64,000 nucleotides of DNA, taken from assembly GCA_038255915.1 (NCBI GenBank), contig JBBSKY010000006.1, positions 1,221 to 65,220 on the forward strand, given 5' to 3'. Position numbers and translations under genes: made by a program. Positions 1,522 to 60,115 of the stretch are shown here, in pieces (position 1 is the first letter of the stretch; each line of letters starts with the position of its first letter). The DNA comes from Acidimicrobiales bacterium (lineage in GTDB: Bacteria > Actinomycetota > Acidimicrobiia > Acidimicrobiales > JAUJNH01). The notes beneath the pieces were generated by a model that was not told the DNA's origin, did no database searches, and worked only from the letters and a program-made list of their open reading frames with translations.

Positions 1522-4278
<2,757 letters not shown>

Positions 4279-4317
4279 GGCGTCGGCGAGCCTACCGGCG
4301 CCCCCAGGGTGGAAGGG

Positions 4318-15398: not shown

Positions 15399-15432
15399 GA
15401 GCTTGTAGAGGGCGAACCCATCGCGAACCCGA

Positions 15433-21267: not shown

Positions 21268-21351
21268 ACGGGAGGGCGAGGCTAGACCCGGCACCTCGCC
21301 GCCTCGCGGACACCCTCCGGCTCCCCCACCGGCGCCGTCGCCGCCAGGCGC

Positions 21352-21380
21352 TTGCAACGGTTAGCACTTAGCGTTACGGT
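21352..21380 (+). promoter_or_regulatory. Candidate sigma-70-type promoter giving a leaderless transcript of the 21388 gene
   Basis: TTGCAA (21352-21357), a 17-nt spacer, then TACGGT (21375-21380, TANNNT type). The A of the ATG at 21388 lies 7 nt after the -10 element. Locally AT-richer than the surroundings, and there is no Shine-Dalgarno sequence. Confidence 0.35.
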
Positions 21381-22693: not shown

Positions 22694-22773
22694 CGCCTCG
22701 ACCCTAGAGGCTGGTCGCAGGCCGACGGGACCTTTCGGACCGGTCCGTTATCCTTCCCGGGTCCACGCTGGGC

Positions 22774-25986: not shown

Positions 25987-27548
25987 TCGCCGCAGCGCAG
26001 CTCCATCTGGGTGAACCAGGGCACCGGTGTCGGACCGGTCCAGGGCTGGGCGCAGACCAGCAGGACCTTGGCGCCGAGGGGGGTGGCGTCGAGGACCGGC
26101 CGCAGCGACGTCTGCGGGGTGGCCGCGGTGAGGCGGGCCAGGGCGTCGCGCCAGTCGGCCACTCCGGGATCGGCCACCGGGCCCATGGCCGTGGCGTAGC
26201 GCAGCCCCGGGGGGAGGTAGTAGGCGAGGACCGGCACCTCCTCCATCTGCATCACCACGACGAGGTCGCCGGCGTCAAGCCCGGGGCCGACCGCCTCCAC
26301 CAGCGGCGTGACCTGCGGCTTGTCATCGAGGTGGTCGACGGACCGCAGGCCGCTGACCCGGGCCAGGGGCTGCACCCACAGGGTCAGGATGAGCGCCAGC
26401 GCCACCAGGCCCCGGGTCCCGGCCCGGGCCAGGCCCAGGGCCGCCACCAGCAGCACCGCGGGGGCACAGACGGCGAGGTAGCGGGGCGCCCAGGACGGGC
26501 TGACCTGGGCGGCGAGCCAGCCGACCACGACCGGGATGGCGGCGATCAGGCCGACGGCCAGCAGCGGGAGCCGCAGCCGGTCGTCCCGGCGCACCAGCAC
26601 CCACAGCGCGGGACCGGCCACCAGCAGGAGGGCCACCAGGACCCGCTCGCGGTTGTCGCCCAGCACCACGGCGACAACGGTGACGGCCTCCCTCGGGAGG
26701 GGTCTGGTGGACCACGGGGCGCCGGTGTGGGCCCGCTGGTAGGCAAGGGTGGGCAGCCACGGGAGATAGGCCAGACCGGCGGCGCCGAACCCGAGGGCCG
26801 CGTCGCGCAGCAGCCGGCGGCGGTCGGCGGCGGCCACGGCGCAGGGGATGAGGGCCGTGGCCAGCCCGATGACCAGCCACAGGCCCCAGCTGTGGGTGTA
26901 GAGGACCAGAGCCAGGGCCACGGCGAACGGCGCCAGGTGGCGCTGGCGGCCGAAGGCGAAGGCGTGGAGGAACGACGCGGTGGCGACCAGGGCCAGCAGC
27001 ACCACCAGGGCGTACATCCGGGTCTCGGTGGCGAAGAAGGCCAGGTAGGGGCTCACGGCGACCAGGGCGGCGAAGGTCCAGCCCACCCGGCGCCCGAACA
27101 GGCTCCAGCCGGCCCACAGGGCGACCGGGATGGTGGCCAGGGCGATGCTGAGCGACAGGGCGTGGGTGGCCGTCTCGGAGGTGCCGAACAGGGCCATCCA
27201 CCCGTGGAGCAGGAGGTAGTACAGCGGTGGCGAGCCGTCCTGGGCCAGTAACCCGGGGATCTCGGCCAGCCGGTGGGAGGCGATCCCGACCGATATCCCC
27301 TCGTCGATCCACAGCGAGGTGCCGAGGTCGCCGACCCGCAGGGCGAACGACACGGCGATGAGGCCGACCAGCCCGGCCACCAGACCCATGACGGGTGACC
27401 ACGACGTCCCCGACCGTCGCTCGGTCTTCTGTTCCGCAGGGCCGCTCGGGCCATCGAGCGGCTCCGGCGCGCTCCGCGACCCAGACCACAGCGCCGCCCG
27501 GAGGGCGCCGCCCTTGGCCAGTCCGCTGCCCGGGGACGCGGCCCCCAT
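25845..27548 (-). CDS. GT-C glycosyltransferase, PMT_2/ArnT-like (paralogue of 22774-24468)
   Basis: 567 aa. LWIDEGISVGIASH, DGSPPLYYLLLHGWMALFG and TETRMYALVVLL are colinear with the 22774 protein along its length. Confidence 0.75.
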   Translation of the reverse strand: MGAASPGSGLAKGGALRAALWSGSRSAPEPLDGPSGPAEQKTERRSGTSWSPVMGLVAGLVGLIAVSFALRVGDLGTSLWIDEGISVGIASHRLAEIPGLLAQDGSPPLYYLLLHGWMALFGTSETATHALSLSIALATIPVALWAGWSLFGRRVGWTFAALVAVSPYLAFFATETRMYALVVLLALVATASFLHAFAFGRQRHLAPFAVALALVLYTHSWGLWLVIGLATALIPCAVAAADRRRLLRDAALGFGAAGLAYLPWLPTLAYQRAHTGAPWSTRPLPREAVTVVAVVLGDNRERVLVALLLVAGPALWVLVRRDDRLRLPLLAVGLIAAIPVVVGWLAAQVSPSWAPRYLAVCAPAVLLVAALGLARAGTRGLVALALILTLWVQPLARVSGLRSVDHLDDKPQVTPLVEAVGPGLDAGDLVVVMQMEEVPVLAYYLPPGLRYATAMGPVADPGVADWRDALARLTAATPQTSLRPVLDATPLGAKVLLVCAQPWTGPTPVPWFTQMELRCGEWRGALQADARFAPAPVVSGSAVTEPAPDGSSTVAGRRVLAVTRIAS

Positions 27549-37216: not shown

Positions 37217-38452
37217 GTGACCGCCGCCATCGTCGTCGACGGCGTCACCAAGCGCTTCAAGATCGGTGGCGAGAAGTTCGACTCCCTCAAGGACCGGCTG
37301 ATCCACCTGGGCCGGGTGCAGCCCACCGAGTTCTGGGCGCTGAAGGGCATCGACCTCGAGATCGCCCAGGGCGAGAGCTTCGGCCTGCTCGGCCACAACG
37401 GATCGGGCAAGTCCACCCTCCTCAAGTGCGTGGCCGGGATCCTGCAGCCCACGGCCGGCCAGGTGCGCACCAAGGGCCGGATGTCGGCCCTGCTCGAGCT
37501 GGGCGCCGGCTTCCACCCCGACCTGACCGGGCGGGAGAACGTCGAGCTGAACGGCCTGCTCCTCGGCCTCGACCGCAAGAGCATCGCGGCCCGCTTCGAC
37601 GAGATCATCGACTTCGCCGGGCCCGAGGTGGCCAGCGCCATCGACCGCCAGGTGAAGTTCTACAGCTCGGGGATGTACGTGCGCCTGGGCTTCGCCGTGG
37701 CCGTCAGCATCGACCCTGAGATCCTCCTGGTCGACGAGGTGCTCTCGGTCGGTGACGAGGCCTTCCAGCGCAAGTGCATGAACCGGGTGAAGCAGCTGCA
37801 GGGCCAGGGCTGCACGATCGTGGTGGTGACCCACGCCGCCGACGTGGTGCGCCAGATCTGCGACCGGGCCGCCGTGCTCGACCACGGCGACCTGATCGTG
37901 GTCGGCGAGCCCCCCGTGGCCATCCGCACCTTCCGCGAGCACCTCTTCGCCACCGGCCAGGGCGACACCGTCGGCGACCTGCTCGACGAGCCGCCCGTCG
38001 TGGAGGGCGAGGAGGCGCCGCCCTCCAGCCGGCGCACGCTGAAGGTGAAGGTGCGCAAGGTCGACGTGCGCCACCCCGGCCAGCCCGACCGGGCCTACCT
38101 GCGCACCGGCGAGCCCCTCGAGGTGGCCATCACCCTGGAGACCTCCGAGCCGATCCCGGGTGTGAACGTCGGCCTCGGGATCCGCGACGTCGAGGGCCGG
38201 ATGGTTTGGACCTCCAACACCGAGCTGCTCGGCGTGCCCACCGGGCCCATCAAGGACCAGGCCACCATCACCTACCGCTTCGGCTCGGTGCCCCTCCTCG
38301 ACGGCGACTACGCCCTGCACGTCGGCGTCGTCAGCATCGAGGACGAGTCGGTCATCTACGATTGGATCGACTCGATGACCGGCTTCAACGTGCTCAGCAC
38401 GGCTCGGGTGTTCGGCCAGGTCGACCTGCCCGTGCACGTCGAGCGCACCTGA
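37217..38452 (+). CDS. wzt: ABC polysaccharide export ATPase with a C-terminal beta-rich extension (Wzt-type)
   Basis: GTG 37217. Walker A GHNGSGKSTLLK, signature YSSGMYVRLGFA, Walker B ILLVDEVLSVGD. An extra domain of about 140 aa (about 38024-38449) is laid out like the Wzt C-terminal glycan-cap-binding domain. Confidence 0.88.
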   Translation: MTAAIVVDGVTKRFKIGGEKFDSLKDRLIHLGRVQPTEFWALKGIDLEIAQGESFGLLGHNGSGKSTLLKCVAGILQPTAGQVRTKGRMSALLELGAGFHPDLTGRENVELNGLLLGLDRKSIAARFDEIIDFAGPEVASAIDRQVKFYSSGMYVRLGFAVAVSIDPEILLVDEVLSVGDEAFQRKCMNRVKQLQGQGCTIVVVTHAADVVRQICDRAAVLDHGDLIVVGEPPVAIRTFREHLFATGQGDTVGDLLDEPPVVEGEEAPPSSRRTLKVKVRKVDVRHPGQPDRAYLRTGEPLEVAITLETSEPIPGVNVGLGIRDVEGRMVWTSNTELLGVPTGPIKDQATITYRFGSVPLLDGDYALHVGVVSIEDESVIYDWIDSMTGFNVLSTARVFGQVDLPVHVERT

Positions 38453-38454
38453 GC

Positions 38455-39144
38455 GTGACCAACCCGTCGGACGACGCGCTGGCCGGTGCCATCGACTACA
38501 AGCGCCTCTACGACTACCGCTTCAAAGACGTCGACCAGGCGGGCCGGGTCGCGGTCTGGGGGGTCCTCGGACTGTGGCTGTGGGAGCGGATGGGCCGGCC
38601 CCAGCGGGTCCTCGACCCCGCCGCCGGTCGCTTCGAGTTCCTGAACGCCATCGGTGCCGGCGAGCGATGGGCCGTCGACCAGGTCGACACCGGGTTCGCC
38701 CGCCACCCCACCATCCGCCTCGAGGTCGGTGACGCCCAGCAGGTGGTGCTCCCGGCCGACCACTTCGACGGCGTCTTCGTCAGCCACTTCCTCGAGCACC
38801 TCCAGAGCCAGCAGCACGTCGCCCTGTTCCTACGCCACCTCCTCACCGCCACCGCCCCCGGCGGCACCATCGCCATCCTCGGGCCCAACTTCCGCTACTG
38901 CGCCTCGCAGTACTTCGACTGCGCCGACCACGTGGTCCCCCTGTCCCACGTCTCGGTGGCCGAGCACCTCCACGCCGCCGGGTACGAGGTGACCGAGGTC
39001 ATCCCCCGCTTCCTCCCGTTCTCCTTCCGCTCGGCCCTCCCGCCCTCCTCCACCCTCACCGCCGCCTACCTCCGCCTCACCCCGGCGTGGCGGCTGCTGG
39101 GCAAGCAGCTGCTGATCCTGGCCCGCAAGCCCGACCCTTCCTAG
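38455..39144 (+). CDS. Class I SAM-dependent methyltransferase
   Basis: GTG 38455, 2 nt after the wzt stop. ...RVLDPAAGRFEFL..., FDGVFVSHFLEHL and APGGTIAILGPN. Confidence 0.7.
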   Translation: MTNPSDDALAGAIDYKRLYDYRFKDVDQAGRVAVWGVLGLWLWERMGRPQRVLDPAAGRFEFLNAIGAGERWAVDQVDTGFARHPTIRLEVGDAQQVVLPADHFDGVFVSHFLEHLQSQQHVALFLRHLLTATAPGGTIAILGPNFRYCASQYFDCADHVVPLSHVSVAEHLHAAGYEVTEVIPRFLPFSFRSALPPSSTLTAAYLRLTPAWRLLGKQLLILARKPDPS

Positions 39145-39154: not shown

Positions 39155-40138
39155 ATGGACGACGGCCCCACGGGGGGCGTGGATGACGTAGCGGTCGTCA
39201 TCCCGGTCTACGGGGGTGAGCACACCCTCGAGCCGCTCGTCGCCGAGATCCGGCCCCTCACCGAGGTCACCACGACCGCCGCGGGCCGGCGCTACCGGGT
39301 GGTCGAGATCATCCTCGTCCACGACCGGGGCCCGGACGCCTCGGCCCAGGTGATCGCCAGGCTCTGCAGCGAGCCGCCCGTCCGCGCCGTGTGGCTGGCC
39401 CGCAACTCCGGCCAGCACGCCGCCACCGTCGCCGGCATCGCCAGCTCCTCCGCCCCATGGGTGGTCACCCTGGACGAGGACGGCCAGCACGTGCCGGCCG
39501 ACATCGGGCTCCTCCTCGACCGGGCCCACGCCGCCCAGGTCCACCTCGTGTACGGCCGCCCTGAGGAGGGGGCTCCCCACGCCCTGTGGCGCAACGCCAC
39601 CAGCGACGCGGCGAAGTGGCTGGCCCGCACGGTGGCGGGCTCCGACCTCGACGACTTCACCAGCTTCCGGCTCATCGAGGGGCCGAGGGCCCGGGCCGTG
39701 TGCGCCTACGTGGGCCGCCGCACGTTCCTCGACTCGGCCCTGCGGTGGGGCATCGACCGCAGCGAGGTCCACCGCACCACGTGGCGCCCCGAGAACCGCT
39801 CCCGGTCGGGCTACGACCTGAACCGGCTGCTCTCGCACTTCTGGACCCTGGTGCTGAGCAGCGGGAACCGCCCGCTGCGGATCGTGTCCACCGTCGGCGG
39901 GGTGGTGGCCGCTACCGGCACCCTCGGTGCGGGCGTGGTGGCCTGGCGCCGGCTGCAGCCCGACTGGGACGACGCCCCGGGCTGGGCGTCGGTGATGGTC
40001 GTCCAGCTCGTCTTGGGCGGCGGCGTCCTGGCCACCCTCGGGGTCCTGGCCGAGTACGTCGGGGCGCTCCTGCGCATCGCCCAGGGCCAGCCGCTCTACA
40101 TCACCGTCGACGCGCCGGAGCCAGCTCCGCCCGCGTGA
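39155..40138 (+). CDS. GT2 polyprenyl-phosphate glycosyltransferase (GtrB/ArnC/DPM1-like) with two C-terminal TM helices
   Basis: 327 aa. VAVVIPVYGGEHTL, ILVHDRGPD, NSGQHAATVAGI and VVTLDEDGQH. C-terminal hydrophobic hairpin. Confidence 0.85.
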   Translation: MDDGPTGGVDDVAVVIPVYGGEHTLEPLVAEIRPLTEVTTTAAGRRYRVVEIILVHDRGPDASAQVIARLCSEPPVRAVWLARNSGQHAATVAGIASSSAPWVVTLDEDGQHVPADIGLLLDRAHAAQVHLVYGRPEEGAPHALWRNATSDAAKWLARTVAGSDLDDFTSFRLIEGPRARAVCAYVGRRTFLDSALRWGIDRSEVHRTTWRPENRSRSGYDLNRLLSHFWTLVLSSGNRPLRIVSTVGGVVAATGTLGAGVVAWRRLQPDWDDAPGWASVMVVQLVLGGGVLATLGVLAEYVGALLRIAQGQPLYITVDAPEPAPPA

Positions 40139-41085
40139 CCGCTCCCCCGGTTCGGACCCTGCTTATCGGAGCCGGCCAGGTGGGGCAGGCCGTGGCGGCC
40201 GCCCTCGCCGAGCCGCCGGCCACCGTGCAGGTGCCGTGGGAGGAGCCGGCCTCGGCCCGGGAGGTGATCGGCGGTGCGGTCCAGCGGTTCCTCCACGACG
40301 CCGAGGACCGGCGCTGGGCGCTGTGCTGGTCGGCAGGCAAGGGGGTCGTCGGCACGCCGGGGGCGGCCCTCGAGCTGGAGCGCAGCTACCTGGCCGCGGC
40401 GCTGGCGGCCGTGGCCGCGGCGCCGGCGGACGTCCGCTCGAACGGCCAGCTGTGCCTGGCCAGCTCGGCCGGCGGCATCCACGCCCGAGAAGGCTCCGGC
40501 GCCGTGACCGAGGCCTCCGAGCCGACGCCGGTGTCGCAGTACGGCCATCACAAGCTGTGCCAGGAGCACGACGTCCGGCGGTTCGCGGCCGCATCAGGGC
40601 TCCCCTGCCTGCTCGGTCGCATCTCGAACGTTTACGGCCCCGGCCAGGACCTGCGGAAGTCCCAGGGCTTCGTCTCGGTCCTGTGCCGAGCCATGCTGCG
40701 ACGCGACGGCTTCGTGCTCACCGTGCCGCCGGACACCATCAGGGACTTCGTCTACGGCGCCGACGTCGGCCGCCGGATGGCGGCCTGGCTGGAGGCCGAC
40801 CACCGCGACCTCGCCGGTGCAGCCGCCGTGAAGCTGCTGGTGTCGGGGCGCTCGACGACGCTGCACGAGGTGATCGCCGTCGTCCGGTCGGTGGCCCGGG
40901 TCCCGGCCCGGATCACCGTGTCGGCCCTCCCCCGCCCCGGCCACCAGCCTCTGCGCACGGTCTTCCACTCGATGTCCCTGCCCGAGCTCGACCGGGCCGC
41001 ACCCACGACCTGCCTGGCCGAGGGGGTGCACCGCACCTGGCAGCACCTCCTGCACGCCACCGCGGCGGAAGGGACCGGGGGCTGA
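40135..41085 (+). CDS. Extended SDR (NAD-dependent epimerase/dehydratase/reductase family)
   Basis: GTG 40135 (GTGA overlap with the GT2 stop). LLIGAGQVGQAV (GxGxxG) and SQYGHHK (YxxxK). Confidence 0.65.
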   Translation: MTAPPVRTLLIGAGQVGQAVAAALAEPPATVQVPWEEPASAREVIGGAVQRFLHDAEDRRWALCWSAGKGVVGTPGAALELERSYLAAALAAVAAAPADVRSNGQLCLASSAGGIHAREGSGAVTEASEPTPVSQYGHHKLCQEHDVRRFAAASGLPCLLGRISNVYGPGQDLRKSQGFVSVLCRAMLRRDGFVLTVPPDTIRDFVYGADVGRRMAAWLEADHRDLAGAAAVKLLVSGRSTTLHEVIAVVRSVARVPARITVSALPRPGHQPLRTVFHSMSLPELDRAAPTTCLAEGVHRTWQHLLHATAAEGTGG

Positions 41086-41106
41086 GGACCGGGGGCTGAG
41101 GACCGG
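41073..41106. repeat. 14-bp direct tandem repeat, about 2.4 copies, spanning the SDR stop codon
   Basis: gaccgggggctgag at 41073 and 41087, and a partial gaccgg at 41101. Confidence 0.85.
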
Positions 41107-41113
41107 CGCCGGG

Positions 41114-41728
41114 TCAGGTCGGCTTGGTCGCCTGCTGGACGCAGTGGGTGTAGGGGAAGCGGTAGACGTCGGACCAGATCTCCTGGTCGACCGCACCGAA
41201 GGACGCCTCCACCAGCCGGCGGTAGTCGTTCGGGTGGCGGACGAACCGGCCCCGGTCGAGGGCCATCAGGACGCGGGCGACGGCCCGCTGGGAGGGCTCG
41301 AAGCAGGGGTCCATGGTGACCAGGCGACCCCCGGGCTCGAGCAGGTCGCAGGCCGAGGCGAGGCCCCGGCCGGCGGTCTCGTCGTCGAGGTGGTGCAGGA
41401 CGCCCAGGCACACCACGACGTCGACGGGGCCGGTGCCGAGGGCGTCGAGGTCGAACACGTCACCGCAGATGAACCGGGCGTGAGCCGAGCCGTGGTCCGC
41501 CTCGGCCGACCGGATGTAGGAGGGGTTGCTGTCGACCCCGACGTAGTCGACCGTGGGCAGGAACGGGACCAGGCGGCCGTTGCCGCACCCGAAGTCGAGC
41601 ACCCGCAGACCGGGCCGGGGATGGATCACCCGGTCCCGGAGAAGCTCCATCTCCCGGTGGGCGCCGATGGTCCGCCGCGACGCCTCATAGGCGAGGGGCG
41701 ACGCCAGCACCCGCTCCAGCACCCGCAC
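41114..41728 (-). CDS. Class I SAM-dependent methyltransferase
   Basis: 204 aa. RVLDFGCGNGRL (motif I), VDVVVCLGVLHHLDD and LEPGGRLV. Confidence 0.8.
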   Translation of the reverse strand: MRVLERVLASPLAYEASRRTIGAHREMELLRDRVIHPRPGLRVLDFGCGNGRLVPFLPTVDYVGVDSNPSYIRSAEADHGSAHARFICGDVFDLDALGTGPVDVVVCLGVLHHLDDETAGRGLASACDLLEPGGRLVTMDPCFEPSQRAVARVLMALDRGRFVRHPNDYRRLVEASFGAVDQEIWSDVYRFPYTHCVQQATKPT

Positions 41729-41790
41729 GGAAGGCGATTGTAGGTGGCCCGCTCCGGGGTCGACCGCTGACCCGTCGGTAGGATCGCCCG

Positions 41791-43533
41791 GTGGAAGGGA
41801 ACCGGCGGCGTGGCGCGGCGGGCCTCACCGATCTCGTCCTGGCCGCCGCCATCGCCGTCGCCGGCTTCACCCTCCTACGGCCCGACTGGTTCCACAACCA
41901 GAACGGGCTCGACCCGTTCTTCTACACGGGCATGTCGCTCAACCTGTCCGACGCCATCGACTACGGGGCGGACGCCCACTACTTCCTGTCGAGGTGGACC
42001 CTCTACATCCCCGAGCTCCTGGCCCAGCGGCTGCTTGGCCCGTCGGTCGGCTTCATCGCCACCCGCCTCGTGCTCCTGGCGCTGGCGGGCGCCGGCCTCG
42101 CCCTCCTGCGCCCGGCGACATCGCGCCGCCTCGACCTCCTCCCGGTGGCCGTGGTCGGGCTGTTCTCACCGCTGGTCGTCCGGGCCGTCTTCGTCGACTA
42201 CAGCGATGCGGTCGTCGTCCCCTGCGGCCTGGCCATGCTCGCCTTGGCCGCCAAGGGACGGGTTGGAGGCCGCACGTCGGCGGCCATCGGGGCCCTGGGG
42301 GCCTGCGCCGTGGTCGCCAACACCTTCGCCCTCGTCATGGTCGCCCTCACCATCGGCGGCTACCTGGCCCGCTCGCTCCCGACGCCCCGCCGGCTCCCGA
42401 CGCAGCTGGCGGCCATCCTGGTGGCGGGCACCGCCGTCATCGGCGCCGGCCTGGTGTTCTTCCGGTGGCGCTACGGCATCGCCAACGTCTATGCCCCCGC
42501 CATCGACTTCGTGCGGGACAACGCCGGCAACCGCGACCCGCTCAAGTCGCCCCGCCTGGTGTGGCTGCAGTTCCGCCTGTGGATCTTCCTGCCTCCGCTG
42601 GTGCTCGCCGCCGCCGCCGCCCTGCGGGCGGCCCGGGTGATCCGCCTGGGTCCCGCCGAGCTCGTCGTGCTCGGCGTGGCGGCGGTCCAGTACGCCTTCC
42701 AGGTCACCTACCAACTCGTCCTCGACGGCTCGACGTTGGAGATCAGCTACTACTTCTCGTACATGGTGCCGGCCTACACGGCCGCCCTCGCCGTCGTGCT
42801 GTACGGCCTGCTCCAGCGTTGCTCGAGACTGGCGACCTGGGCGTTGACCGCGGCCGTCGTCACCCTCCTCGCCGCCTGGCGGCACCTGCCCGAGGTCCAC
42901 CTGGCCAGCTGGACGACCTTCGCCGGCGGGGTCGTCGCCATCGGCCTCATCGGCGGCCTGCTGGCCCGCCGGCTGCCCGTCCTGCTCCCCGTCGGGGTGG
43001 TGGCCGTGGTCCTGGCCGCCCAGCTGGCGCCGCCGGCCGACGAACCCAGGCTGCCGGGCGAGCTGCGGGTGGACGCGGGCTACGCCACGGTCTACCGGGG
43101 CGGCACCTCCACCGGGGTCGAGCGGTTCCGGGCCATCCCCGCCTTCCTCAACCAGGTCCACGCCCTCGACCCCCAGGTCCGCAAGGGGGCAGGGTGGATC
43201 GTGGGCCGAGGCACCGGCCAGCAGAAGGCGGCCGTCCTCTCGGTCCAGGTCGGCATGCCGAGCCGCTGGCTCAACCCGCCCGCCGCCCAGCTCGACCCCT
43301 ACCTGCCCGTCAACCCGTCGCGCTTCGCCGCCGACCGCTTCGTCGAGCAGCGCCTCACCCACATCATCGTCGTGTGCCTGCCCGAGGAGCTCCCGGTCGT
43401 CCTCACCCGCCTCGAAGAGCTCGGCTTCACCGTCGGCCCACCCCTTCTCGACGACGTTGACACCCTGGCGAAACCGGCCACCCAGCTCTACGTTGCCCCC
43501 ATGGCCCTGCGTGGCGGCGACGGAGCCGGGTGA
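41791..43533 (+). CDS. Polytopic membrane protein (GT-C-like or polymer-processing; uncharacterised)
   Basis: 580 aa with more than 10 hydrophobic segments, a first loop NQNGLDPFFYTGMSLNLSD, and a soluble C-terminal domain of about 170 aa. Confidence 0.5.
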   Translation: MEGNRRRGAAGLTDLVLAAAIAVAGFTLLRPDWFHNQNGLDPFFYTGMSLNLSDAIDYGADAHYFLSRWTLYIPELLAQRLLGPSVGFIATRLVLLALAGAGLALLRPATSRRLDLLPVAVVGLFSPLVVRAVFVDYSDAVVVPCGLAMLALAAKGRVGGRTSAAIGALGACAVVANTFALVMVALTIGGYLARSLPTPRRLPTQLAAILVAGTAVIGAGLVFFRWRYGIANVYAPAIDFVRDNAGNRDPLKSPRLVWLQFRLWIFLPPLVLAAAAALRAARVIRLGPAELVVLGVAAVQYAFQVTYQLVLDGSTLEISYYFSYMVPAYTAALAVVLYGLLQRCSRLATWALTAAVVTLLAAWRHLPEVHLASWTTFAGGVVAIGLIGGLLARRLPVLLPVGVVAVVLAAQLAPPADEPRLPGELRVDAGYATVYRGGTSTGVERFRAIPAFLNQVHALDPQVRKGAGWIVGRGTGQQKAAVLSVQVGMPSRWLNPPAAQLDPYLPVNPSRFAADRFVEQRLTHIIVVCLPEELPVVLTRLEELGFTVGPPLLDDVDTLAKPATQLYVAPMALRGGDGAG

Positions 43534-43676
43534 TCACGAGATGTGGGCACGAGCGGCTTCAGCTCGTCGAGCCGAGGCGGAGGAAGGTTCTCCCCTTTCC
43601 CCGCGCTCGGGACAATCGCCCCCTTTGCTCGTTTCCCGAAGTCTCCCGCGAGGCTCTTGTCGAGGCCGAAGGGGGA

Positions 43677-43682
43677 TAGAAT
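43677..43682 (+). promoter_or_regulatory. Candidate -10 element upstream of the stand-alone repeat-protein gene
   Basis: TAGAAT within a 200-bp, locally GC-poorer intergenic region. GGGAGA Shine-Dalgarno sequence 6 nt before ATG 43735. No convincing -35 element at proper spacing. Confidence 0.25.
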
Positions 43683-43734
43683 CTGAGCGACCCTGTGCTA
43701 AGAAGGACTCCATCAATCGACGGGAGAATTCTGC

Positions 43735-45093
43735 ATGCCTCACTTCTTGACCAGTGTCCGCAAGCCAAGGTATCTGGCGGCCGCCGCCGGCGTGGCGCTC
43801 CTCCTGACCGCAGTTGGAACCGGGATCCAGCCGAGCGGCGCCGAGGCCTTCTGTGACGCCGACCCCTGCGGCCCGGAGGGCACCTACACCCCGGTGACAC
43901 CGACCCGCCTCCTCGACGGCCGGCTGACCGACCCCCAGATCCGTCTCGGTGTCGACGGAACCACCGACCTGAAGGTCACCGGCGTGGTAGATGAAGATGA
44001 CGTGGAATTGGTTCCTGCGACGGGCGTCTCCGCAGTGGTGCTGAACCTCACCGTCGACCTGCCGACCTTGGACAGCTTCTTCACGATCTCCCCCACCGGC
44101 ACGGCCACCACCACATCGAGCCTGAACTTCGCCGCCGGCGAGACCAGAGCGGCCGCCACCACGGTCAAGGTCGGAACGGACGGCATGGTGACCATCACCA
44201 ACGCCTTCGGTCAGGCCTTCCCCATCGTCGACATCCAGGGCTACTTCTCTGACGGCACCGAGGACGAGGAGCCCGGCAGCTCCTACGTGCCGCTCCCGAC
44301 CCCGAGCCGGGTCGTCGACACCCGGGTCGGCGGCGCCGCGAACAAGTTCGCAGCCGACACGACGAAGAACATCTCCTTGACCGACCCCCCGGTGGAGGGG
44401 GCCACCTCCGTGCCGGCGGGCGCCACCGCCGTCGTCGCCAACCTCACCGTCACCAACACCACCGCTGACGGCTACCTCACCGCCTTCGCCGAGGGGACCG
44501 ACCCGCCACTGGTGTCCAACCTCAACTGGGCCGCCGGCCGGCAGATCCCGAACCTGGCCACCATCCCCCTCAGCACCGACGGCATGATCACGGTCTACAA
44601 CTCGGCCGGAGCCACCGACGTCCTGATCGACGTGACCGGCTACTACGTGCCCGAGGATGACGAGACGGTCGGTGACCGGTTCACCCCGGTTGACCCCGAC
44701 CGCATCGGCGACTCCCGCTCGGCCATCGGAGGTCTCGTCACCTTCACCACCGCCGACCAGGCCCAGAACCTGAAGGTCACCGGCGCGGATGCGGCGCCGG
44801 AAGGCGCGTCCGCCGTCGTGGTGTCCATAACCAGTGACAACGTCACCGCCGAGACCTTCTTCACCGCCTACCCCAAGGGTGGAGCGACGGCGCCCAACGT
44901 GTCGAACCTCAACCCGATCGCCGGCGAGCAGGCCGCCAACCTGGCCATCGTCCGGGTCGGGGACAACGGTGAGATCACCCTGCTGAGCAGGACGCCGACG
45001 GCAAACGTCATCGTCGACCTCTACGGCTACTTCGAGGGTGAACCTCCTGCGGAGGCCATCATCGACATCGCCTTCGATCCTCTGCTGGGTTAG
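43735..45093 (+). CDS. Secreted protein made of a signal peptide plus three divergent copies of the unassigned ~130-aa module
   Basis: 452 aa. Signal peptide AAAAGVALLLTAVGTGIQPSGAEA. Copies begin at YTPVTPTRLLDGR, YVPLPTPSRVVDTR and FTPVDPDRIGDSR. Each contains AVV.N.TV...GY/F.T..P....P..SNLN and ends in D..GY[FY]. Confidence 0.7.
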   Translation: MPHFLTSVRKPRYLAAAAGVALLLTAVGTGIQPSGAEAFCDADPCGPEGTYTPVTPTRLLDGRLTDPQIRLGVDGTTDLKVTGVVDEDDVELVPATGVSAVVLNLTVDLPTLDSFFTISPTGTATTTSSLNFAAGETRAAATTVKVGTDGMVTITNAFGQAFPIVDIQGYFSDGTEDEEPGSSYVPLPTPSRVVDTRVGGAANKFAADTTKNISLTDPPVEGATSVPAGATAVVANLTVTNTTADGYLTAFAEGTDPPLVSNLNWAAGRQIPNLATIPLSTDGMITVYNSAGATDVLIDVTGYYVPEDDETVGDRFTPVDPDRIGDSRSAIGGLVTFTTADQAQNLKVTGADAAPEGASAVVVSITSDNVTAETFFTAYPKGGATAPNVSNLNPIAGEQAANLAIVRVGDNGEITLLSRTPTANVIVDLYGYFEGEPPAEAIIDIAFDPLLG

Positions 45094-45110
45094 CAGCCTT
45101 ACGAGCAGGC

Positions 45111-45143
45111 GAGGAAGGCCCGGCCCTCGGCCGGGCCTTCCTC
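45111..45143. terminator. Perfect 15-bp stem / 3-nt loop hairpin between convergent genes (likely bidirectional intrinsic terminator)
   Basis: gaggaaggcccggcc-ctc-ggccgggccttcctc, located 18 nt after the stop of 43735-45093 and 34 nt before the stop of the minus-strand GT4 gene. No U-tract. Confidence 0.6.
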
Positions 45144-45176
45144 GCTATCGGGGCACGGTGCAACGCGTGGATCGCG

Positions 45177-47516
45177 TCAGCGGCGGGCGGAGCGGAGGCG
45201 GTCGAGGGCGGCTAGGAGGTCGGCTGCGGTGGTGGCGAAGGTGCGGCGGGCGGCCTCGGCCAGCCCGCCCCGGGACAGGGCTTCCCTCCGGGCGGGCTGC
45301 TCCAGCAGGTCGAGGAGGACGGTGGCCAGCTCCTCGCTGCCGCGGCCTGGGTCCAGCTGGAGGACGGTGCCCTCGGCCAGCTCGGCGGCCGCCGCCACGT
45401 TGGTGACACAGGGCACGCCCAGGCCGAGGAGGTCGCCGATGGCCGCCGAGCTCTCGCCGTAGGTGGTGGACCGCAGCTGGACGCCGACGCTGGCCCGGGC
45501 CACCCACGCCCAGTACTCCTCCCGTGACAGCTGGCCGGTGGTGGTGACGTGCCCGGCCACGCCGAAGGCCTCGGCCGCCTCGGCGATGCGGTGGCGCCAG
45601 TCGTCGCCGATCCAGCCGACGAAGGCCAGACGGGCCGGGCGGCGGGTGCGCACCAGGGCCAGCGCCTCGACCAGCACCAGGGGCGACTTCACGGCGTCGA
45701 CGATCCCGAGGGCGACCAGGAGCGGCGGGTCCTCCTCGGGGGCCCGAGGACGCGGGGGTCGGGGCACGGCCAGCGGCAGAACCTCGACCGGGGGCAGCAC
45801 CGAGCCCGGGCGCTGGTCGAGGGCGAGGAGGCGGGCGGCCAGCTGCGAGCTGACGATCACCCCGGTGCTGTCGGCCACGGCCCGCCCGGTCATGCCGATG
45901 CCCCGCTTGGCCAGCTCGTTCGGCAGGGCCCGCAGCTGCGGGGTGGTGTGCAGCTCGGCGGCCGGGTAGAGCTCGGCCAGCTGGTGGGCCAGGTACCCGT
46001 CCGGATCTGCGTGCCGAAGCGATTCGCCCCACGCCGGCCCGGTGAGGCGGACGTCGTGGAACCAGGCCACGCCCGGGTGCCGGCGCAGGGCCTCGAGGGA
46101 GCGAACGTGGTGGACCGAGTTCCCGAGCGTGTACACCAGGTGGTCGAAGGACCAGGGGTTGTACATCGTCTCGATCATCAGCACCGAGGCAACCTCGTAG
46201 CCCACCTCGTCCCTCGGCGCGGTGCCCATGGGGTCGAAGGCCACCACGTCGGCCAGCCGGGCCAGCTCGTCGAGCAGCTGCCCGTTGTAGGTGGCGACAC
46301 CGCTGTCGATGGGCGGGAGCGGGCCGACGACGCCGATGACGGGTCGTGACGGGCGACGGGTCATCGGCGGCGGGTGACCGCTGGTGCGGAGCCCGTCGAG
46401 GGCCGCCACGGCCCGATCGGCGACAGCGGTCCAGGTCAGCCCGGGTGCGCGGGCTGCGGCCCGCTCGGCCAGCTCGTCGCGGAAGGGCCCGTCAGCTAGG
46501 CCTGCGGCCACCACCCGGGCCAGGTCGAGGGCGTCGGTGGCGTCGAAGGTGGACGGAGGCCACCGCAGGATCTCGGGCAGCGACGTGGTGTTCGAGGTGA
46601 CCGCGGGGCAACCGCAGCGGATGGCCTCGGCCACGGGCAGCCCGAACCCCTCGTAGAGGGAGGCGAAGGCGAACAGGCGGGCCGACTGGTAGAGGGCCCG
46701 GAGCACCTCGTCGCTGACGTAGCCGGTCAGCACCACCTCGTCGTCGTCCAGGCCCTCATCCAGGCCCACGGCCACGAGGGCGGCCAGCGACGGCCCGTCC
46801 ATCCGGCAGGCCACGACCAGCTGGTGGGCCCGGCGCAGGTCCTCGGGCAGGCGGGCCCAGCCCCGGACGAGCCCGGACAGGTTCTTGTGCGGCGCCGGCG
46901 CCCCCACCGAGAAGACGAAGGGACGGGTGACGGCGGGGAGGGTGTGGCGGACCAGGGCGGCGGGGAGGGCCGGGTCGCCGGAAGGCCGGAACCAGTCCCC
47001 CGTCCCGGCGCCGATGACAACGACGCGCCCGGGCTCGACGTCGAGGTGGCGCACCGCGTCGTCCCGGGTGTGGTCGGAGATGGTGAGCACCAGGTCGGCC
47101 TGGCGGATGAGGTCGAGGCGCTGGTGGTGGGTGCGGTGGCGCCAGCCCTCGAGGTAGGTGGCGGGGTGGATCGAGGGGATGAGGTCGTAGACGATCGTCG
47201 CCACCGGCCAGCCCCGGCGGGAGATGTGGGGCGGCAGCATCACCGTCGGCCGGGCCCCCTCCATCGGCGACATGACCACGTAGGCAGCGTCGTCGCCGAC
47301 GTCGGCGACCGCGGCCCCGGTGTTCCAGGACAGCAGGGGCGAGGCGAGGAGGTCGGTGGGCAGCGCCGGCGGGAAGGGCAGGCTGGGGTTGAGCAGCAGC
47401 CGCTCCACCCGCCCGGTGGCCACCAGCGCCCTGGCGCACTCGGTGACGTAGCGGGCGATGCCCCGGTCGGGGTGGTGGAGCGACTGGGCGGCCTGCAGGT
47501 CGAGGAGCAGCCGCAT
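45177..47516 (-). CDS. Tandem double-GT4 glycosyltransferase (two GT-B modules; WbdA-like polymerase architecture)
   Basis: ATG 47516 (MRLLLDLQAAQSLHHPDRGIARY). First module ends ...YEGFGLPVAEAIRCGCPAVTS. A second GT-B-like half has TYGESSAAIGDLLGLGVPCVTN. Paralogue of 50907-53285. Confidence 0.8.
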   Translation of the reverse strand: MRLLLDLQAAQSLHHPDRGIARYVTECARALVATGRVERLLLNPSLPFPPALPTDLLASPLLSWNTGAAVADVGDDAAYVVMSPMEGARPTVMLPPHISRRGWPVATIVYDLIPSIHPATYLEGWRHRTHHQRLDLIRQADLVLTISDHTRDDAVRHLDVEPGRVVVIGAGTGDWFRPSGDPALPAALVRHTLPAVTRPFVFSVGAPAPHKNLSGLVRGWARLPEDLRRAHQLVVACRMDGPSLAALVAVGLDEGLDDDEVVLTGYVSDEVLRALYQSARLFAFASLYEGFGLPVAEAIRCGCPAVTSNTTSLPEILRWPPSTFDATDALDLARVVAAGLADGPFRDELAERAAARAPGLTWTAVADRAVAALDGLRTSGHPPPMTRRPSRPVIGVVGPLPPIDSGVATYNGQLLDELARLADVVAFDPMGTAPRDEVGYEVASVLMIETMYNPWSFDHLVYTLGNSVHHVRSLEALRRHPGVAWFHDVRLTGPAWGESLRHADPDGYLAHQLAELYPAAELHTTPQLRALPNELAKRGIGMTGRAVADSTGVIVSSQLAARLLALDQRPGSVLPPVEVLPLAVPRPPRPRAPEEDPPLLVALGIVDAVKSPLVLVEALALVRTRRPARLAFVGWIGDDWRHRIAEAAEAFGVAGHVTTTGQLSREEYWAWVARASVGVQLRSTTYGESSAAIGDLLGLGVPCVTNVAAAAELAEGTVLQLDPGRGSEELATVLLDLLEQPARREALSRGGLAEAARRTFATTAADLLAALDRLRSARR

Positions 47517-47527
47517 GGCGGACGGCT

Positions 47528-48373
47528 TCAGCCCGGGGCCCGGGCCAGCTCGACCAGAACCAGGTGATCGGCGGTCGGTTCGGCCGGCTGTCCCACCATC
47601 CAGCCGCCGTCGACCTTGAACGCGGTAGCCCGGTGGGTGACGGCCCAGCCGGCGTCGGCCAGAGCGGCGAGGCAAGGCTGCAGGCTGATGTCGGCCGTCG
47701 CTCCGACCACAGGTGCGGCGACGACAAGACGCCCGCCGGTCGACAGCCACGCCGCCGCAACCTCGAGCCGTCTCGGATCGTCGGCGGTCAAGGGGCCCCG
47801 GCAGGCGAACACGACGACGGCGGCCGGACCTGCCTCCCCGGCGGCGGCCTCCCCCGCGGCAGACTCCCAGCCCGGTGTCTGGACGCCACGGTCGAGAGGC
47901 GAATCAGCCCCACCCCCGACGAGCGTGGTGGGGTGGCCGGCGCCGGCGGTGAAGACGGCGAGCTCGGCCAGCCCACCGACCAGCACGACCGGGCCCCCGG
48001 GCGTGGCCCGGCCGAGGGCGGCGAGGGCGAAGGGCACCTCGACCGCGGCCCGGCTGCCTGCGAGGTGGCTCGCCGACGGGTCTGGCGAGCCGACCGCGGC
48101 ACCAAGCTCGGCCAGCCGGCGCTCGACCCGCAGGGCGGCGTGCTGGAGGAGGGTGGAGGCCTCGGCGACGGTGGTCATGGCCGGGTCGACGACCTCGTAC
48201 ATGCGGTCGTGGACGCGGTGGGTCTCGCTCTGCAGGCCGTCGATGCGCGCCCCCAGGCTCTCCCGGGTGTGCTGGGCCTCGTTCGTGACATGCCGGAACA
48301 GGGTTTCGAGCTTGGCGTTCAGGGCCGAGGTGACCGGTGCGGTGGCGCGGCGGAGGCTCGCGGCGATGCCCAT
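47528..48373 (-). CDS. Helical N-terminal domain plus a degenerate methyltransferase-like domain (paralogue of 53297-54391)
   Basis: ATG 48373. 281 aa. An N-terminal region of about 95 aa is helical (LETLFRHVTNEAQHTRESLGARIDGLQSETHRVHDRMYE...). The C-terminal Rossmann-like region has VVLVGGLAEL where the paralogue has VLDLGAAES. Confidence 0.5.
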   Translation of the reverse strand: MGIAASLRRATAPVTSALNAKLETLFRHVTNEAQHTRESLGARIDGLQSETHRVHDRMYEVVDPAMTTVAEASTLLQHAALRVERRLAELGAAVGSPDPSASHLAGSRAAVEVPFALAALGRATPGGPVVLVGGLAELAVFTAGAGHPTTLVGGGADSPLDRGVQTPGWESAAGEAAAGEAGPAAVVVFACRGPLTADDPRRLEVAAAWLSTGGRLVVAAPVVGATADISLQPCLAALADAGWAVTHRATAFKVDGGWMVGQPAEPTADHLVLVELARAPG

Positions 48374-48449: not shown

Positions 48450-50126
48450 ATGCGGGAGGTGACGGCGGCGTCGGCGCCGGCGGTCGCCCCCCCACCAAAG
48501 GACCGGGCCCCACGCCCCGAGGGCACGGCTCGTCAGCCGCCGGAGGCGTCGGTCGAGGACCCCACGCCCCACCCCCCCACGAAGCCCTCGACCGGGCTCG
48601 CCGGCCTCCTTTGGATCGGCGTGCTCGGCGTCGCCGTGCGGGTCTGGCTGCTGGCCTCACCGCTCGGGTACCTCAACTCCGACGAGGCCCACACCTCGAT
48701 CCAGGCCCGCGAGCTGTTCCGGGGCCACGCCTGGATCCTGGTGCCGGGCACCCCCTACGGCGGCAACGTCGAGGCCTGGATCGACGCGCCGCTGGCCGCC
48801 CTGCTCGGCCTGTCCGCCACCCGCAACAAGGTCGAGGCGATCCTGCTCTGGCTGGTGGCCGGGCTGGTGCTGGCCCGGTCGGTGCGCCACCTCGGCCGGG
48901 GCCCGGTGGCCGCCGCCTTCGGCGTGGTGTGGCTCCCCTCGGCCGCCATCGTGCTGCTCAGCACCCTCGACTACCCCGGCTACGCCGTCGGGTTCCTCGC
49001 CACCTGCGGGGTGCTGGCCCTGGCCCGACCCCTCATCGACGATCCACCGCCGCCGGCCCAACCTGGAGGGGACCAGCTGGAGCTTCGGGCCCTGGCCTGG
49101 CGGGCCGCTGCCACCGGTGCCCTGGCCGGGCTGGCCGTGTGGCAGCACCCGCTCTACGGCTGGATCTGCGCCACCACGCTGGCCGCGGTGGCCTGGCGCC
49201 AGCGCCGCCTCGCCCGTTCGGTCCTCCTCCCGCTGGTCGCCGGCGGTGTGGTGGCCCTGGCCCCGGTCGTGGTCACCAACCTGCGCCACGACCTGGTGTC
49301 GCTGCGGTTCCGGAGCCCGGCCGCCATCGCCTACCCCGAGCGGGTCCGGGCCTGGGTCACCGACCTGTACCCCCGGTCGGTGGGTGCCAAGTGGCTGGAC
49401 CCCGGGTGGGTCCTCCGCGGCCCTAGCCAGGTGCTGGCCGTGCTGCTGCTCGCCACCCTCCTGGCCACCTGCGTCGCCGTTGTGCGATGGTCGCCCCCGT
49501 CGGGGAAGGTGGCGGCCGGAACGCTGGTCCTGGCCCCCTTCACCCTCACGCTGCTGGGCAACACCGCCTACACCCAGGACGCCCGCTACGCCGCCATGGT
49601 GCTGCCCGTCGCCGGCCTGGTGGTGGCCCACGGCGTCGCCCTCCTCCCCCCGGGCTGGCGCACCGGCCGCAGCATCGCCCTCGTGGCCACGGCCTGGGCC
49701 CTGCTGGCCGTGGCCCTGCCCCTCAGCCGCACCGACATGGCCGCCTTCGGTGACCGCACCGGCGAGGTCGACCAGCTGGTGGACTTCCTCGACGCCCGCC
49801 AGATCACCGCCGTCCGGGCCGACTACTGGGTGGCCTACCGGGTCGTGGTCGAGAGCGACGAGCGCATCGCCGCCAGCCCCCTCGACCCGATCAAGTTCGA
49901 CCGCTACGAGCAACGGGTGCGTCAGGCCGACACCGACGCCGGCGGCGCCGGTGTGCTCGTGCTCGACCGGGACCAGGCCGCCACCTACCCGGCCGCCGTC
50001 GCCAGGGGCGAGCTCCCGTACCGGTCCTTCCCGCAGTTCCAGGGCCACCAGCAGGTCGAGGTCTCCCGGTGGACGGTGTTCCTGCCGCCCGGCCCGCCGG
50101 CAGCCTCCACCACCGGCGGCGGCTGA
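48450..50126 (+). CDS. GT-C-like polytopic membrane glycosyltransferase (ArnT/PMT-like)
   Basis: Start is ATG 48450 or GTG 48429. First loop YLNSDEAHTSIQARELFRGH, at least 10 hydrophobic segments and a soluble C-terminal domain. Followed 2 nt later by a GT2 gene. Confidence 0.6.
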   Translation: MREVTAASAPAVAPPPKDRAPRPEGTARQPPEASVEDPTPHPPTKPSTGLAGLLWIGVLGVAVRVWLLASPLGYLNSDEAHTSIQARELFRGHAWILVPGTPYGGNVEAWIDAPLAALLGLSATRNKVEAILLWLVAGLVLARSVRHLGRGPVAAAFGVVWLPSAAIVLLSTLDYPGYAVGFLATCGVLALARPLIDDPPPPAQPGGDQLELRALAWRAAATGALAGLAVWQHPLYGWICATTLAAVAWRQRRLARSVLLPLVAGGVVALAPVVVTNLRHDLVSLRFRSPAAIAYPERVRAWVTDLYPRSVGAKWLDPGWVLRGPSQVLAVLLLATLLATCVAVVRWSPPSGKVAAGTLVLAPFTLTLLGNTAYTQDARYAAMVLPVAGLVVAHGVALLPPGWRTGRSIALVATAWALLAVALPLSRTDMAAFGDRTGEVDQLVDFLDARQITAVRADYWVAYRVVVESDERIAASPLDPIKFDRYEQRVRQADTDAGGAGVLVLDRDQAATYPAAVARGELPYRSFPQFQGHQQVEVSRWTVFLPPGPPAASTTGGG

Positions 50127-50128: not shown

Positions 50129-50923
50129 GTGTGGGAGGGCCAGACCATCTCGGTGGTGCTGCCCACCTACAACGAGGTGGGCAGCATCCGCTCGTGCATC
50201 GAGGCCTTCGAGGCACTCGGCATCGTGGACGAGGTCCTGGTGGTCAACAACAACGCGGCCGAGGGCACCCGCGAGGCCGTGGCCCCCACCGGGGCCCGTG
50301 AGGTCGACGAGCCGGTCCAGGGCTACGGCGCCGCCATCCGCCGGGGGCTGGCCGAGGCCCGTGGCGACCTGGTCGTCCTGTGCGAGCCCGACGGCACGTT
50401 CGACCCGAGCGACCTGCGCAAGCTGCTCCCGTTCACCGTCGACACCGACGTCGTGTGGGGCTCGCGCACCGTCCAGGTGTTCATCTGGGACGGAGCCAAC
50501 ATGGGCCTGTTCCTGCGGTGGGGCAACTGGGCCGTGGCCAAGCTCATCGAGGTGATCTTCGGCACCGCCTACCTGAGCGACGTGGGCTGCACCATGCGGG
50601 TCATGCACCGCCACGTGGTCGAGAGCCTCCTCCCCACCTTCCGCCTCACCGGCTCGGCCTTCGGCCTCGAGCTCCTCCTGCGCAGCATCGTCGCCCGCCA
50701 CCGCTTCGTGCAGGTCCCCGTGCGCTACAAGCAGCGGGTCGGCCACTCCTCGGTGACCGGCGACCGGTGGAAGGCGGTGGCGCTGGGCCTGGAGATGATC
50801 CGCCTCGTGCTGCGCTTCCGGTTCCGCCTGCGGTCGCTGGCGGCCCAGCCGCTGGCCCCCGACCGCGACGCCCGGGGCCTCCCCCGGGAGGGGCCTGACG
50901 CCCCCCTCAGCCCGACGGGCTGA
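50129..50923 (+). CDS. GT2 glycosyltransferase (polyprenyl-phosphate sugar synthase-like)
   Basis: GTG 50129. ISVVLPTYNE, VLVVNNNAAEGT, VLCEPDGTFDPSD and an amphipathic basic C-terminus. Confidence 0.8.
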   Translation: MWEGQTISVVLPTYNEVGSIRSCIEAFEALGIVDEVLVVNNNAAEGTREAVAPTGAREVDEPVQGYGAAIRRGLAEARGDLVVLCEPDGTFDPSDLRKLLPFTVDTDVVWGSRTVQVFIWDGANMGLFLRWGNWAVAKLIEVIFGTAYLSDVGCTMRVMHRHVVESLLPTFRLTGSAFGLELLLRSIVARHRFVQVPVRYKQRVGHSSVTGDRWKAVALGLEMIRLVLRFRFRLRSLAAQPLAPDRDARGLPREGPDAPLSPTG

Positions 50924-57123: not shown

Positions 57124-57258
57124 CACCGCTGGGCAACGGGTGTCGCGGGCGTGAACGCCGCCTGACCGCCCGGCCGTCAAGGCGGCGTGTAGCCTGACGG
57201 CCAAAGCGGCGGCGGGAGCGGCCCGTCCAGCTGTGGACGACCCGCTGGAGGACCAGCT

Positions 57259-60054: not shown

Positions 60055-60077
60055 CTGACCTCCGGTCGCAGACAGCC

Positions 60078-60103
60078 AGAAGCCCCCCTCACGGGGGGCT
60101 TCT
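60078..60103. terminator. 11-bp stem / 4-nt loop hairpin between convergent genes (likely bidirectional terminator)
   Basis: agaagcccccc-tcac-ggggggcttct, located 24 nt after the S8 stop and 13 nt before the manC stop. Confidence 0.6.
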
Positions 60104-60115
60104 GCGCGTCCGGCT

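Follow-up and report, generated by a model that had tools for sequence, protein, structure and literature searches.

In Clostridioides difficile, the Cwp proteins carry three copies of the CWB2 domain (PF04122), which form a trimer-like anchor and are combined with varied functional domains, and the cwp genes adjoin the locus that makes their polysaccharide ligand. The SLH modules of Firmicutes (PF00395) likewise occur as three tandem copies that act as one pseudo-trimeric unit, placed at either end of many proteins. Such triplets hold secreted proteins, enzymes as well as subunits of surface layers (S-layers), non-covalently on the secondary cell-wall polymer (PMC6081394). A trimer is also found at the end of an adhesive fibre of Bdellovibrio, the tip of which (Bd2133) is a beta-sandwich packed in threes (PMC10769870). 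Here we describe a gene of an Acidimicrobiales bacterium (contig JBBSKY010000006.1 of assembly GCA_038255915.1; the 64,000 nucleotides analyzed are called the window below) whose product consists, apart from a predicted signal peptide, almost entirely of three diverged copies of one module and lacks the enzymatic domain, or head, to which this module is joined elsewhere. Our best reading, to which we give an even chance, is that this head-less protein is a secreted, non-enzymatic protein that binds a surface glycan, folds as a pseudo-trimer, has its own transcript and is encoded inside a glycan cluster.

The likeness to SLH is one of functional analogy and not of family membership: SLH modules are helical and about 55 amino acids (aa) long, whereas the modules described here are predicted jelly rolls of about 125 aa, without a match to PF00395. 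CWB2 also differs in fold, there is no match to PF04122, and the likeness does not imply a head-less CWB2 protein. In structure, the beta-sandwiches of Bd2133 and of phage fibre tips are closest to a single module; however, those are homotrimers borne on a long fibre, whereas here three diverged copies lie in one chain and there is no fibre.

A Secreted Protein Made of Three Modules

The gene and its product comprise the following parts.

43735-45093, + strand: coding sequence, 452 aa; orthologues P0002-P0014 are 51-79% identical (BLASTP)
43735-43848, + strand: Sec-type signal peptide, aa 1-38, read from the sequence; predicted local distance difference test (pLDDT) below 50 over residues 1-39
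43852-43869, + strand: Cys40...Cys45 loop, both cysteines invariant in 14/14 orthologues
43876-44253, + strand: module 1, aa 48-173, in which LDGR replaces LDTR, invariant among orthologues
43984-44010, + strand: stretch of module 1 encoding VVDEDDVEL, including an acidic insertion of about 6 aa, in AT-rich codons
44275-44652, + strand: module 2, aa 181-306, the most canonical copy
44671-45039, + strand: module 3, aa 313-435
45040-45090, + strand: C-terminal tail, 17 aa, variable; most orthologues lack it and in two it is Thr-rich

A sequence-only reading of this stretch had proposed a signal peptide followed by three diverged modules without an enzymatic head, and the 452-aa reading frame bears this out. 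The putative signal peptide has a basic n-region (R9, K10, R12) and an 18-residue hydrophobic core (LAAAAGVALLLTAVGTGI), and it is probably cleaved after AEA, which directly precedes F39; as read from the sequence, EAFC is not a lipobox. Residues 1-39 are disordered in the AlphaFold model. Export by the Sec system and cleavage would release an acidic protein of three jelly-roll modules, with a predicted length of 414 aa, a mass of 42.5 kDa and an isoelectric point (pI) of 4.05. This mature form contains 2 Cys and is nearly free of Cys and His; some orthologues, all of which come from metagenomes, have a variable Gly/Tyr-rich stretch between the equivalents of Cys40 and Cys45. The acidic insertion of module 1 is missing in 13/13 orthologues, and the 50 bp flanking it have a guanine-plus-cytosine (GC) content of only 54%.

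The three modules, each of about 125 aa, share 36-38% pairwise identity. Searches of Pfam and NCBIfam and sequence-profile searches of the PDB gave no match to the protein or its modules, and Pfam searches with the whole protein and 55 modules gave no hit even at E-values up to 1-10. Because no Pfam or NCBIfam domain matches, the protein is taken to have no catalytic head.

Predicted Fold and Packing of the Modules

The full-length AlphaFold model is all-beta, with a pLDDT of 89.4 and a predicted template-modeling score (pTM) of 0.86. For a chain of three domains, this pTM suggests, insofar as a model score can, a fixed packing between the modules. Modeled alone, module 2 is a jelly roll (pLDDT 92.8) whose best match in the PDB is the Bdellovibrio Bd2133 fibre tip (8OK3/8OND), with a template-modeling (TM) score of 0.58-0.60; further matches are a trimeric phage cement protein, BclA (3TWI/3TYJ) and CBM6. 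When module 2 was compared with predicted viral structures, the closest resemblance (TM 0.6-0.7) was to C-terminal parts of tail-fibre and tail-collar proteins. Identity in the fibre-tip matches is just 11-20%, a likeness of fold that is not proof of homology.

Matches of the whole chain are led by proteins with multiple jelly rolls, including a viral triple jelly roll and a single-chain C1q head (5HKJ). The C1q/TNF-like heads (5HKJ; BclA) also have three jelly rolls per globular head and the model aligns across all three units of 5HKJ, but the packing differs (global TM 0.24-0.26, root-mean-square deviation 21 A) and there is no sequence similarity. Jelly-roll carbohydrate-binding modules (CBM6, CBM22 and a porphyran-binding module) are comparable as small beta-sandwich accessories of enzymes, although their TM scores are weak (~0.41-0.43), no Pfam CBM family matches here, and a strong preference for triplets is untypical of them. 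Judging from the models, the three modules probably form a single-chain pseudo-trimer, perhaps around a three-fold axis, and they would then pack as one rigid unit, much as three chains do in the tips of phage tail fibres and the Bd2133 fibre.

A Large Family Joined to Hydrolases and Proteases

Two further genes of the window carry the triplet.

30425-32845, + strand: paralogous carrier, SpoIID head with three modules at the C-terminus
57256-60054, + strand: paralogous carrier, S8 protease head with three modules at the C-terminus

All three triplet-bearing genes fall within one 30-kb cluster. The modules of the SpoIID fusion (31682-32842) are 74-77% identical to each other, compared with 36-41% within the head-less protein and the S8 fusion, which points to recent duplication or homogenization. 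The modules of the head-less protein are 26-43% identical to the modules of the two fusions and have many invariant residues in common with them; the head-less orthologues have invariant changes of their own, for example LDGR in module 1 and the loss of a conserved Asn.

A first database search returned 711 homologues. Exactly three modules are present in 120/120 of the best of these, with the triplet at the C-terminus of 44 proteins, at the N-terminus of 45 and making up essentially the whole of 30. The heads include M23, CHAP, Amidase_2, G1, S8, CAP, FN3, Kelch, RCC1, PD40 and others. With a profile of the single module, 40,468 representative proteins were detected (E up to 0.001), and among the top 150 most have three matched stretches and several have six or nine. 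A rule of always three modules holds for the best hits only, as single-module proteins are common in genomes: complete open reading frames in 80 named-genome loci have three modules in 53 cases, one module in 40 and two in 4. The occurrence of one or three modules, and rarely two, fits a unit that works as a trimer, which would be assembled from three separate chains in the one case and contained within a single chain in the other.

Carriers belong chiefly to Actinomycetota (Streptomyces, Kitasatospora, Cellulomonas, Rothia, Agromyces and many Acidimicrobiia) and are also found in Chloroflexi, Acidobacteriota, one Polyangiales bin and one Rudaea bin. In RefSeq they are named after their heads only, or are called hypothetical. 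Across Actinomycetota and other phyla, the triplet serves as the non-catalytic block of secreted peptidoglycan hydrolases and proteases, and its likeliest job would be to keep the protein attached, by non-covalent binding, to a glycan of the cell surface.

The Surrounding Envelope-Glycan Cluster

Judged by domain content, the surrounding 35 kb is an envelope-glycan cluster. Its transport genes encode an ABC2-type membrane protein and a Wzt ATPase with a Wzt_C domain, and its enzymes comprise several GT1 and GT2 glycosyltransferases, methyltransferases, an epimerase-like gene, a GDP-mannose 4,6-dehydratase and a sugar nucleotidyltransferase; many large membrane proteins are also encoded. The head-less gene lies between two genes of this cluster.

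41791-43533, + strand: upstream gene, 580-aa polytopic membrane protein without a Pfam match
45177-47750, - strand: downstream gene, convergent glycosyltransferase with two GT1-type matches

Orthologues of the head-less gene were located in the following loci, each given with the identity of the orthologue, the gap upstream of it and the neighbouring genes.

L001: P0010, 57%; gap of 42 bp after a membrane protein; GT1, GT2, SpoIID, S8 and ABC2 genes
L002: P0014, 51%; gap of 60 bp after a membrane protein; GT1, GT2 and methyltransferase genes
L003: P0002, 79%; gap of 222 bp after a methyltransferase; partial convergent gene, its DNA 91.5% identical to the GT1 gene of the window
L004: P0003, 66%; gap of 191 bp; convergent double-GT1 gene
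L085: P0005, 63%; gap of 46 bp; convergent double-GT1 gene
L087: P0007, 67%; gap of 644 bp after a divergent methyltransferase; short partial convergent gene
L088: P0008, 55%; gap of 100 bp; partial genes without domain data

Glycosyltransferase or methyltransferase genes are neighbours in all six readable contexts (L001-L004, L085 and L087), and a convergent double-GT1 gene is the usual neighbour. A conserved pairing with the upstream membrane protein was considered and rejected, as the upstream proteins of L001 and L002 are not similar to that encoded at 41791-43533. Because the head-less gene is embedded in an envelope-polysaccharide cluster, its product probably binds, coats or organizes the polymer of that cluster, which would be made by an ABC-transporter pathway.

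The SecA encoded in the window (1522-4317) shares 96% identity with a SecA of an Acidimicrobiales metagenome bin, which places the source among the uncultured Acidimicrobiia. L001 comes from a relative with a SecA that is 90% identical to that of the window, and the SpoIID, GT1 and ABC2 proteins and an FAD oxidoreductase of L001 have counterparts in the window. The SpoIID protein (14347-16356) and the adjacent S8 protease (16385-18481) of this locus end not in the triplet but in a different repeat (GYWLVASDGGIFAYGDA...), a propeller-like unit of about 40 aa (GYWLVASDGGIFAYGDAxFxGS) present in several copies. Compared with the window, this looks like a swap of anchor domains between lineages. 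The head-less triplet protein is retained in L001 all the same, which argues against a role in competing with those enzymes. A decoy or competitor for the binding sites of the SpoIID and S8 fusions had been raised by the sequence-only reading. A head-less competitor or regulator that occupies their wall sites and tunes their access would be in keeping with the proximity of the three triplet genes and with the fold and invariant residues common to the three proteins. The low identity to the fusion modules and the changes particular to the orthologues (LDGR, the lost Asn) nevertheless suggest a different specificity, and together with L001 they make us regard competition as very unlikely.

Several other features of the cluster were recorded. 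The Wzt ATPase with its Wzt_C domain lies directly upstream of a methyltransferase (37271-39144); Wzt_C domains recognize the chemically capped chain end in O-antigen-type ABC pathways. On the - strand, positions 17263-21360 encode a protein of about 1,335 aa with an N-terminal GT2 domain, many membrane spans and a very acidic C-terminus with short repeats (DDLDDLDDLDD, and SARDDL three times). Pfam has no match for any of five large polytopic membrane proteins (22771-24468, 24472-25650, 25845-27380, 41791-43533 and 48650-50126), two of which look paralogous on inspection of their sequences, and a PTPS_related membrane protein is encoded at 9047-11902. Together, these suggest that the envelope locus encodes many uncharacterized membrane proteins resembling glycosyltransferases.

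Rapid Evolution of the Head-Less Protein

The closest relative of the window is L003, whose flanks are 94% and 91.5% identical to it, compared with 85% for the gene itself. Between the two loci, the ratio of nonsynonymous to synonymous divergence (dN/dS) is 0.62 for the gene vs. 0.17-0.25 for three flanking genes, with similar dS, and the similar dS indicates that the gene was inherited together with its neighbours. By this measure, the protein is under relaxed or diversifying selection, like many exposed proteins. The window has a segment of 4.3 kb (39309-43565), encoding a GT2 protein, an epimerase, a methyltransferase and the 580-aa membrane protein, that is found in neither of the two closest relatives, L003 and L004. 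In L003, 57 bp of the GT2 gene survive, suggesting that this locus underwent a deletion. A second segment, 81 bp long (45102-45182), is likewise present in the window and not in L003.

These comparisons bear on two other interpretations. The first is that the protein is an extracytoplasmic accessory of the polysaccharide pathway, which binds the nascent or exported chain and aids its attachment or sets its length. Its position in a glycan cluster is conserved in all readable contexts, usually beside the convergent double-GT1 gene, and in the window, L001 and L002 the gene directly follows a large polytopic membrane protein, both of which speak for such an accessory. These upstream membrane proteins, however, have no detectable mutual homology, and the membrane-protein gene and three others are absent from L003 and L004. 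Moreover, most members of the module family are fused to enzymes unrelated to glycan synthesis, and the dN/dS would be unusual for a core assembly factor. We therefore consider an accessory of this kind unlikely.

The second interpretation takes the protein for an outward-facing lectin or adhesin directed at foreign surfaces, or for a protein that masks a glycan serving as phage receptor, as a shield or decoy. Its fold is like that of the tips with which phage tail fibres and the fibres of a predatory bacterium bind their receptors, and a raised dN/dS is expected in an arms race. Yet the protein has no stalk, anchor or partner for outward display and no sequence link to phages, and nothing observed distinguishes a foreign ligand from a self ligand; this interpretation appears highly improbable.

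Candidate Transcription Signals Around the Gene

The non-coding features on both sides of the gene are listed below.

43534-43734, + strand: upstream spacer, candidate promoter and leader; 201 bp, longer and poorer in GC than any other non-coding stretch of the window
43677-43682, + strand: TAGAAT, -10-like hexamer, the sole TANNNT in the spacer, preceded by a run of G
43680-43734, + strand: conserved leader, last 55 nt of the spacer, 89-96% identical to L003 vs. 85% for the coding region
43722-43727, + strand: GGGAGA Shine-Dalgarno sequence, 7 nt before the ATG, identical in L003
45109-45145: perfect GC-rich hairpin with a 17-bp stem and a 3-nt loop, between convergent genes

The spacer had been described as about 200 bp long and as the longest and GC-poorest of its kind, and this was confirmed: its GC content of 61.2% lies in the lowest 0.33% of all 201-bp windows, and the 200-bp window with the lowest GC content of the whole 64 kb (43576-43775, 58.5%) overlaps it. 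The spacer also falls in the longest stretch of the 64-kb window that lacks the coding periodicity in GC content at third codon positions (GC3). The proposed Shine-Dalgarno sequence stands as well, with GGAG preceding the start codon in L001, L002 and L004. Positions 43566-43734 are homologous to the spacer of L003 despite the different upstream gene there; that the spacer accompanies the gene in this way favours a transcription unit of its own, as do the divergent upstream gene and 644-bp gap in L087. The spacer of L004 contains ggggTACGGT.

Two blocks of the spacer are conserved in L003, one at 43611-43640 (GGACAA...CCCCTTTGCTC.TTTCC) and one at 43663-43676 (GAAGGGGG), directly before the -10-like box, and the CCCCCTT and AAGGGGG of these blocks are able to pair. 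From their sequence, they could be a regulator site or the promoter of an alternative sigma factor. A structured RNA leader was not supported: folding of the spacer gave no significant structure in the window (z = -0.8) or in L003 (z = -0.05). An Rfam search of the window had no hits, and hence the spacer contains no known riboswitch or leader.

Downstream of the gene, the arms of the hairpin (45109-45125 and 45129-45145) have a folding energy of -50.9 kcal/mol (z = -6.8) and lie within the 81 bp that distinguish the window from L003. This is the longest perfect hairpin of the window; Markov simulations reached 13 bp at most. A perfect hairpin of 15 bp had been claimed, and although a perfect hairpin does follow the gene, its stem is 17 bp, so that it ends 2 nt beyond the stretch marked out in the sequence-only reading. 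A hairpin after the stop codon is present at 6/8 loci (counting the window, and the near-duplicates L085 and L086 as one), with similar hairpins 16-26 nt past the stop in L001, L002, L085/L086, L087 and L088. Among the first 88 loci, the core GGCCCGGCC..GGCCGGGCC occurs only after orthologues. However, a longer form, the palindrome GAGGGCCCGGCC-N(1-8)-GGCCGGGCCCTC, is found in at least 120 high-GC metagenome contigs (L089-L208, mean GC 69%), and none of the 120 contigs among the matches listed has a module gene. The hairpin was therefore rejected as a gene-specific element; being common in high-GC contigs without the gene, the palindrome is a generic GC-rich element and may be a widespread motif of terminator type.

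Perfect hairpins whose stems reach 11 bp or more occur at only two further places in the window, 60077-60104 and 50157-50186. The former, with a 12-bp stem, is situated between convergent genes, immediately behind the S8 fusion, and probably serves as a terminator too.

The claim that the gene forms an autonomous unit is plausible: the convergent downstream gene, the spacer and the hairpin agree with it, whereas the short gaps in some orthologues and the state of the promoter (see below) do not. On these features, the gene is likely transcribed as a separate unit, with transcription starting at its own promoter in the AT-richer spacer and ending at the hairpin, and there may be read-through from the gene at 41791-43533.

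Composition and Codon Usage

The GC content of the window is 73.4%. That the gene is less GC-rich than its neighbours proved correct, its GC content of 67.6% (mean 73.2%, z = -2.0) being the second lowest of 37 genes. The drop is mainly at codon position 1 (62.5% vs. 73.8%) and thus reflects amino-acid content, with a modest drop in GC3 (89.2% vs. 93.8%). Thr amounts to 13.1% of residues vs. 5.5% in other genes, and Arg to 3.1% vs. 7.9%. The stretch encoding VVDEDDVEL (43984-44010) supplies part of the low-GC signal. Codons ending in A or T make up 10.8% vs. 5.5% in other genes, including the rare GGA, TTG, GAA and AGA. Horizontal acquisition as the cause of the low GC content was not supported, given that dS to L003 matches that of the flanks and that the drop lies at codon position 1.

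A true S-layer protein, that is, an abundant subunit of a self-assembling two-dimensional lattice that covers the wall, might be expected to have some of these properties. Secreted, acidic and Thr-rich, with almost no Cys or His, the protein would fit, although such features are weak and non-specific; its gene has a distinct AT-richer spacer and a strong 3' hairpin that could stabilize the mRNA, evolves faster than its neighbours, and adjoins genes for glycan synthesis, as at some S-layer loci. Against this, the entire mature protein is the triplet, elsewhere an accessory block, leaving no separate region to form a lattice, its mass is small, and rare codons ending in A or T are frequent in its gene. 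Literature searches on S-layers found nothing relevant for Acidimicrobiia. Overall, we consider a lattice-forming S-layer protein quite unlikely.

A Proposed Surface-Glycan-Binding Protein

A wall- or surface-associated role, already suggested by the sequence-only reading, is the best interpretation in view of the fusions to hydrolases and proteases, the likeness of the predicted fold to fibre tips and the envelope-glycan context. Several observations nevertheless weigh against parts of our reading. With regard to the fold, whole-chain matches in the PDB are weak (TM ~0.24, up to 0.26). With regard to the ligand, the carriers in diderm groups (Acidobacteriota, Polyangiales and the Rudaea bin) imply that it cannot be a polymer specific to Gram-positive walls, and our literature searches for an Actinobacterial triple wall-binding domain returned no paper on the module. 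A tblastn search of 50,697 phage genomes had no match, and thus no phage endolysin or other phage gene with the module; a phage link at the sequence level was rejected on this ground. Codon usage shows no sign of selection for high expression and does not look like a pointer to it.

The remaining points concern the transcript. The -10-like box claimed earlier is present, but it is not conserved, L003 having GACGGG at this position, and a scan for sigma-70-type -35/-10 pairs spaced by 16-18 nt found none, leaving TAGAAT without a -35 partner. There is no terminator between the gene and the upstream gene on the same strand, and in L001, L002 and L085 the gap behind a same-strand gene is only 42-60 bp. 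The hairpin after the stop codon is weaker in L004 and absent in L003, and in the window its stem is followed by GCTATCGGGG and not by a U-tract. Hairpins without a U-tract have been reported to terminate transcription in high-GC Actinobacteria.

A broader and bolder proposal, which we put forward tentatively and with distinctly less than even confidence, is that the module defines an unnamed family (>40,000 clusters) of pseudo-trimeric jelly-roll anchors, mainly an Actinomycetota counterpart of SLH and CWB2, that shares its fold with the tips of phage tail fibres. The head-less protein would in that case be a dedicated lectin or coat for the polysaccharide of its cluster, and would evolve fast because it is exposed at the surface.

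What is notable is the very large module family, which has no name and no studied member; the lone gene is of moderate interest. If the triplet is an anchor to surface glycans, thousands of secreted hydrolases and proteases in Actinomycetota and several other phyla would owe their retention at the surface to it, through a fold unrelated to the SLH, CWB2, LysM, and SH3b anchors. Annotators would gain a name for a domain that is now called hypothetical or after its head. Of all members, the head-less protein would be the easiest to express, and as the genes for the candidate ligand adjoin it, the question can be tested directly. Almost nothing is known about the envelope biology of Acidimicrobiia, for which even a plain wall-coat protein would be new information.

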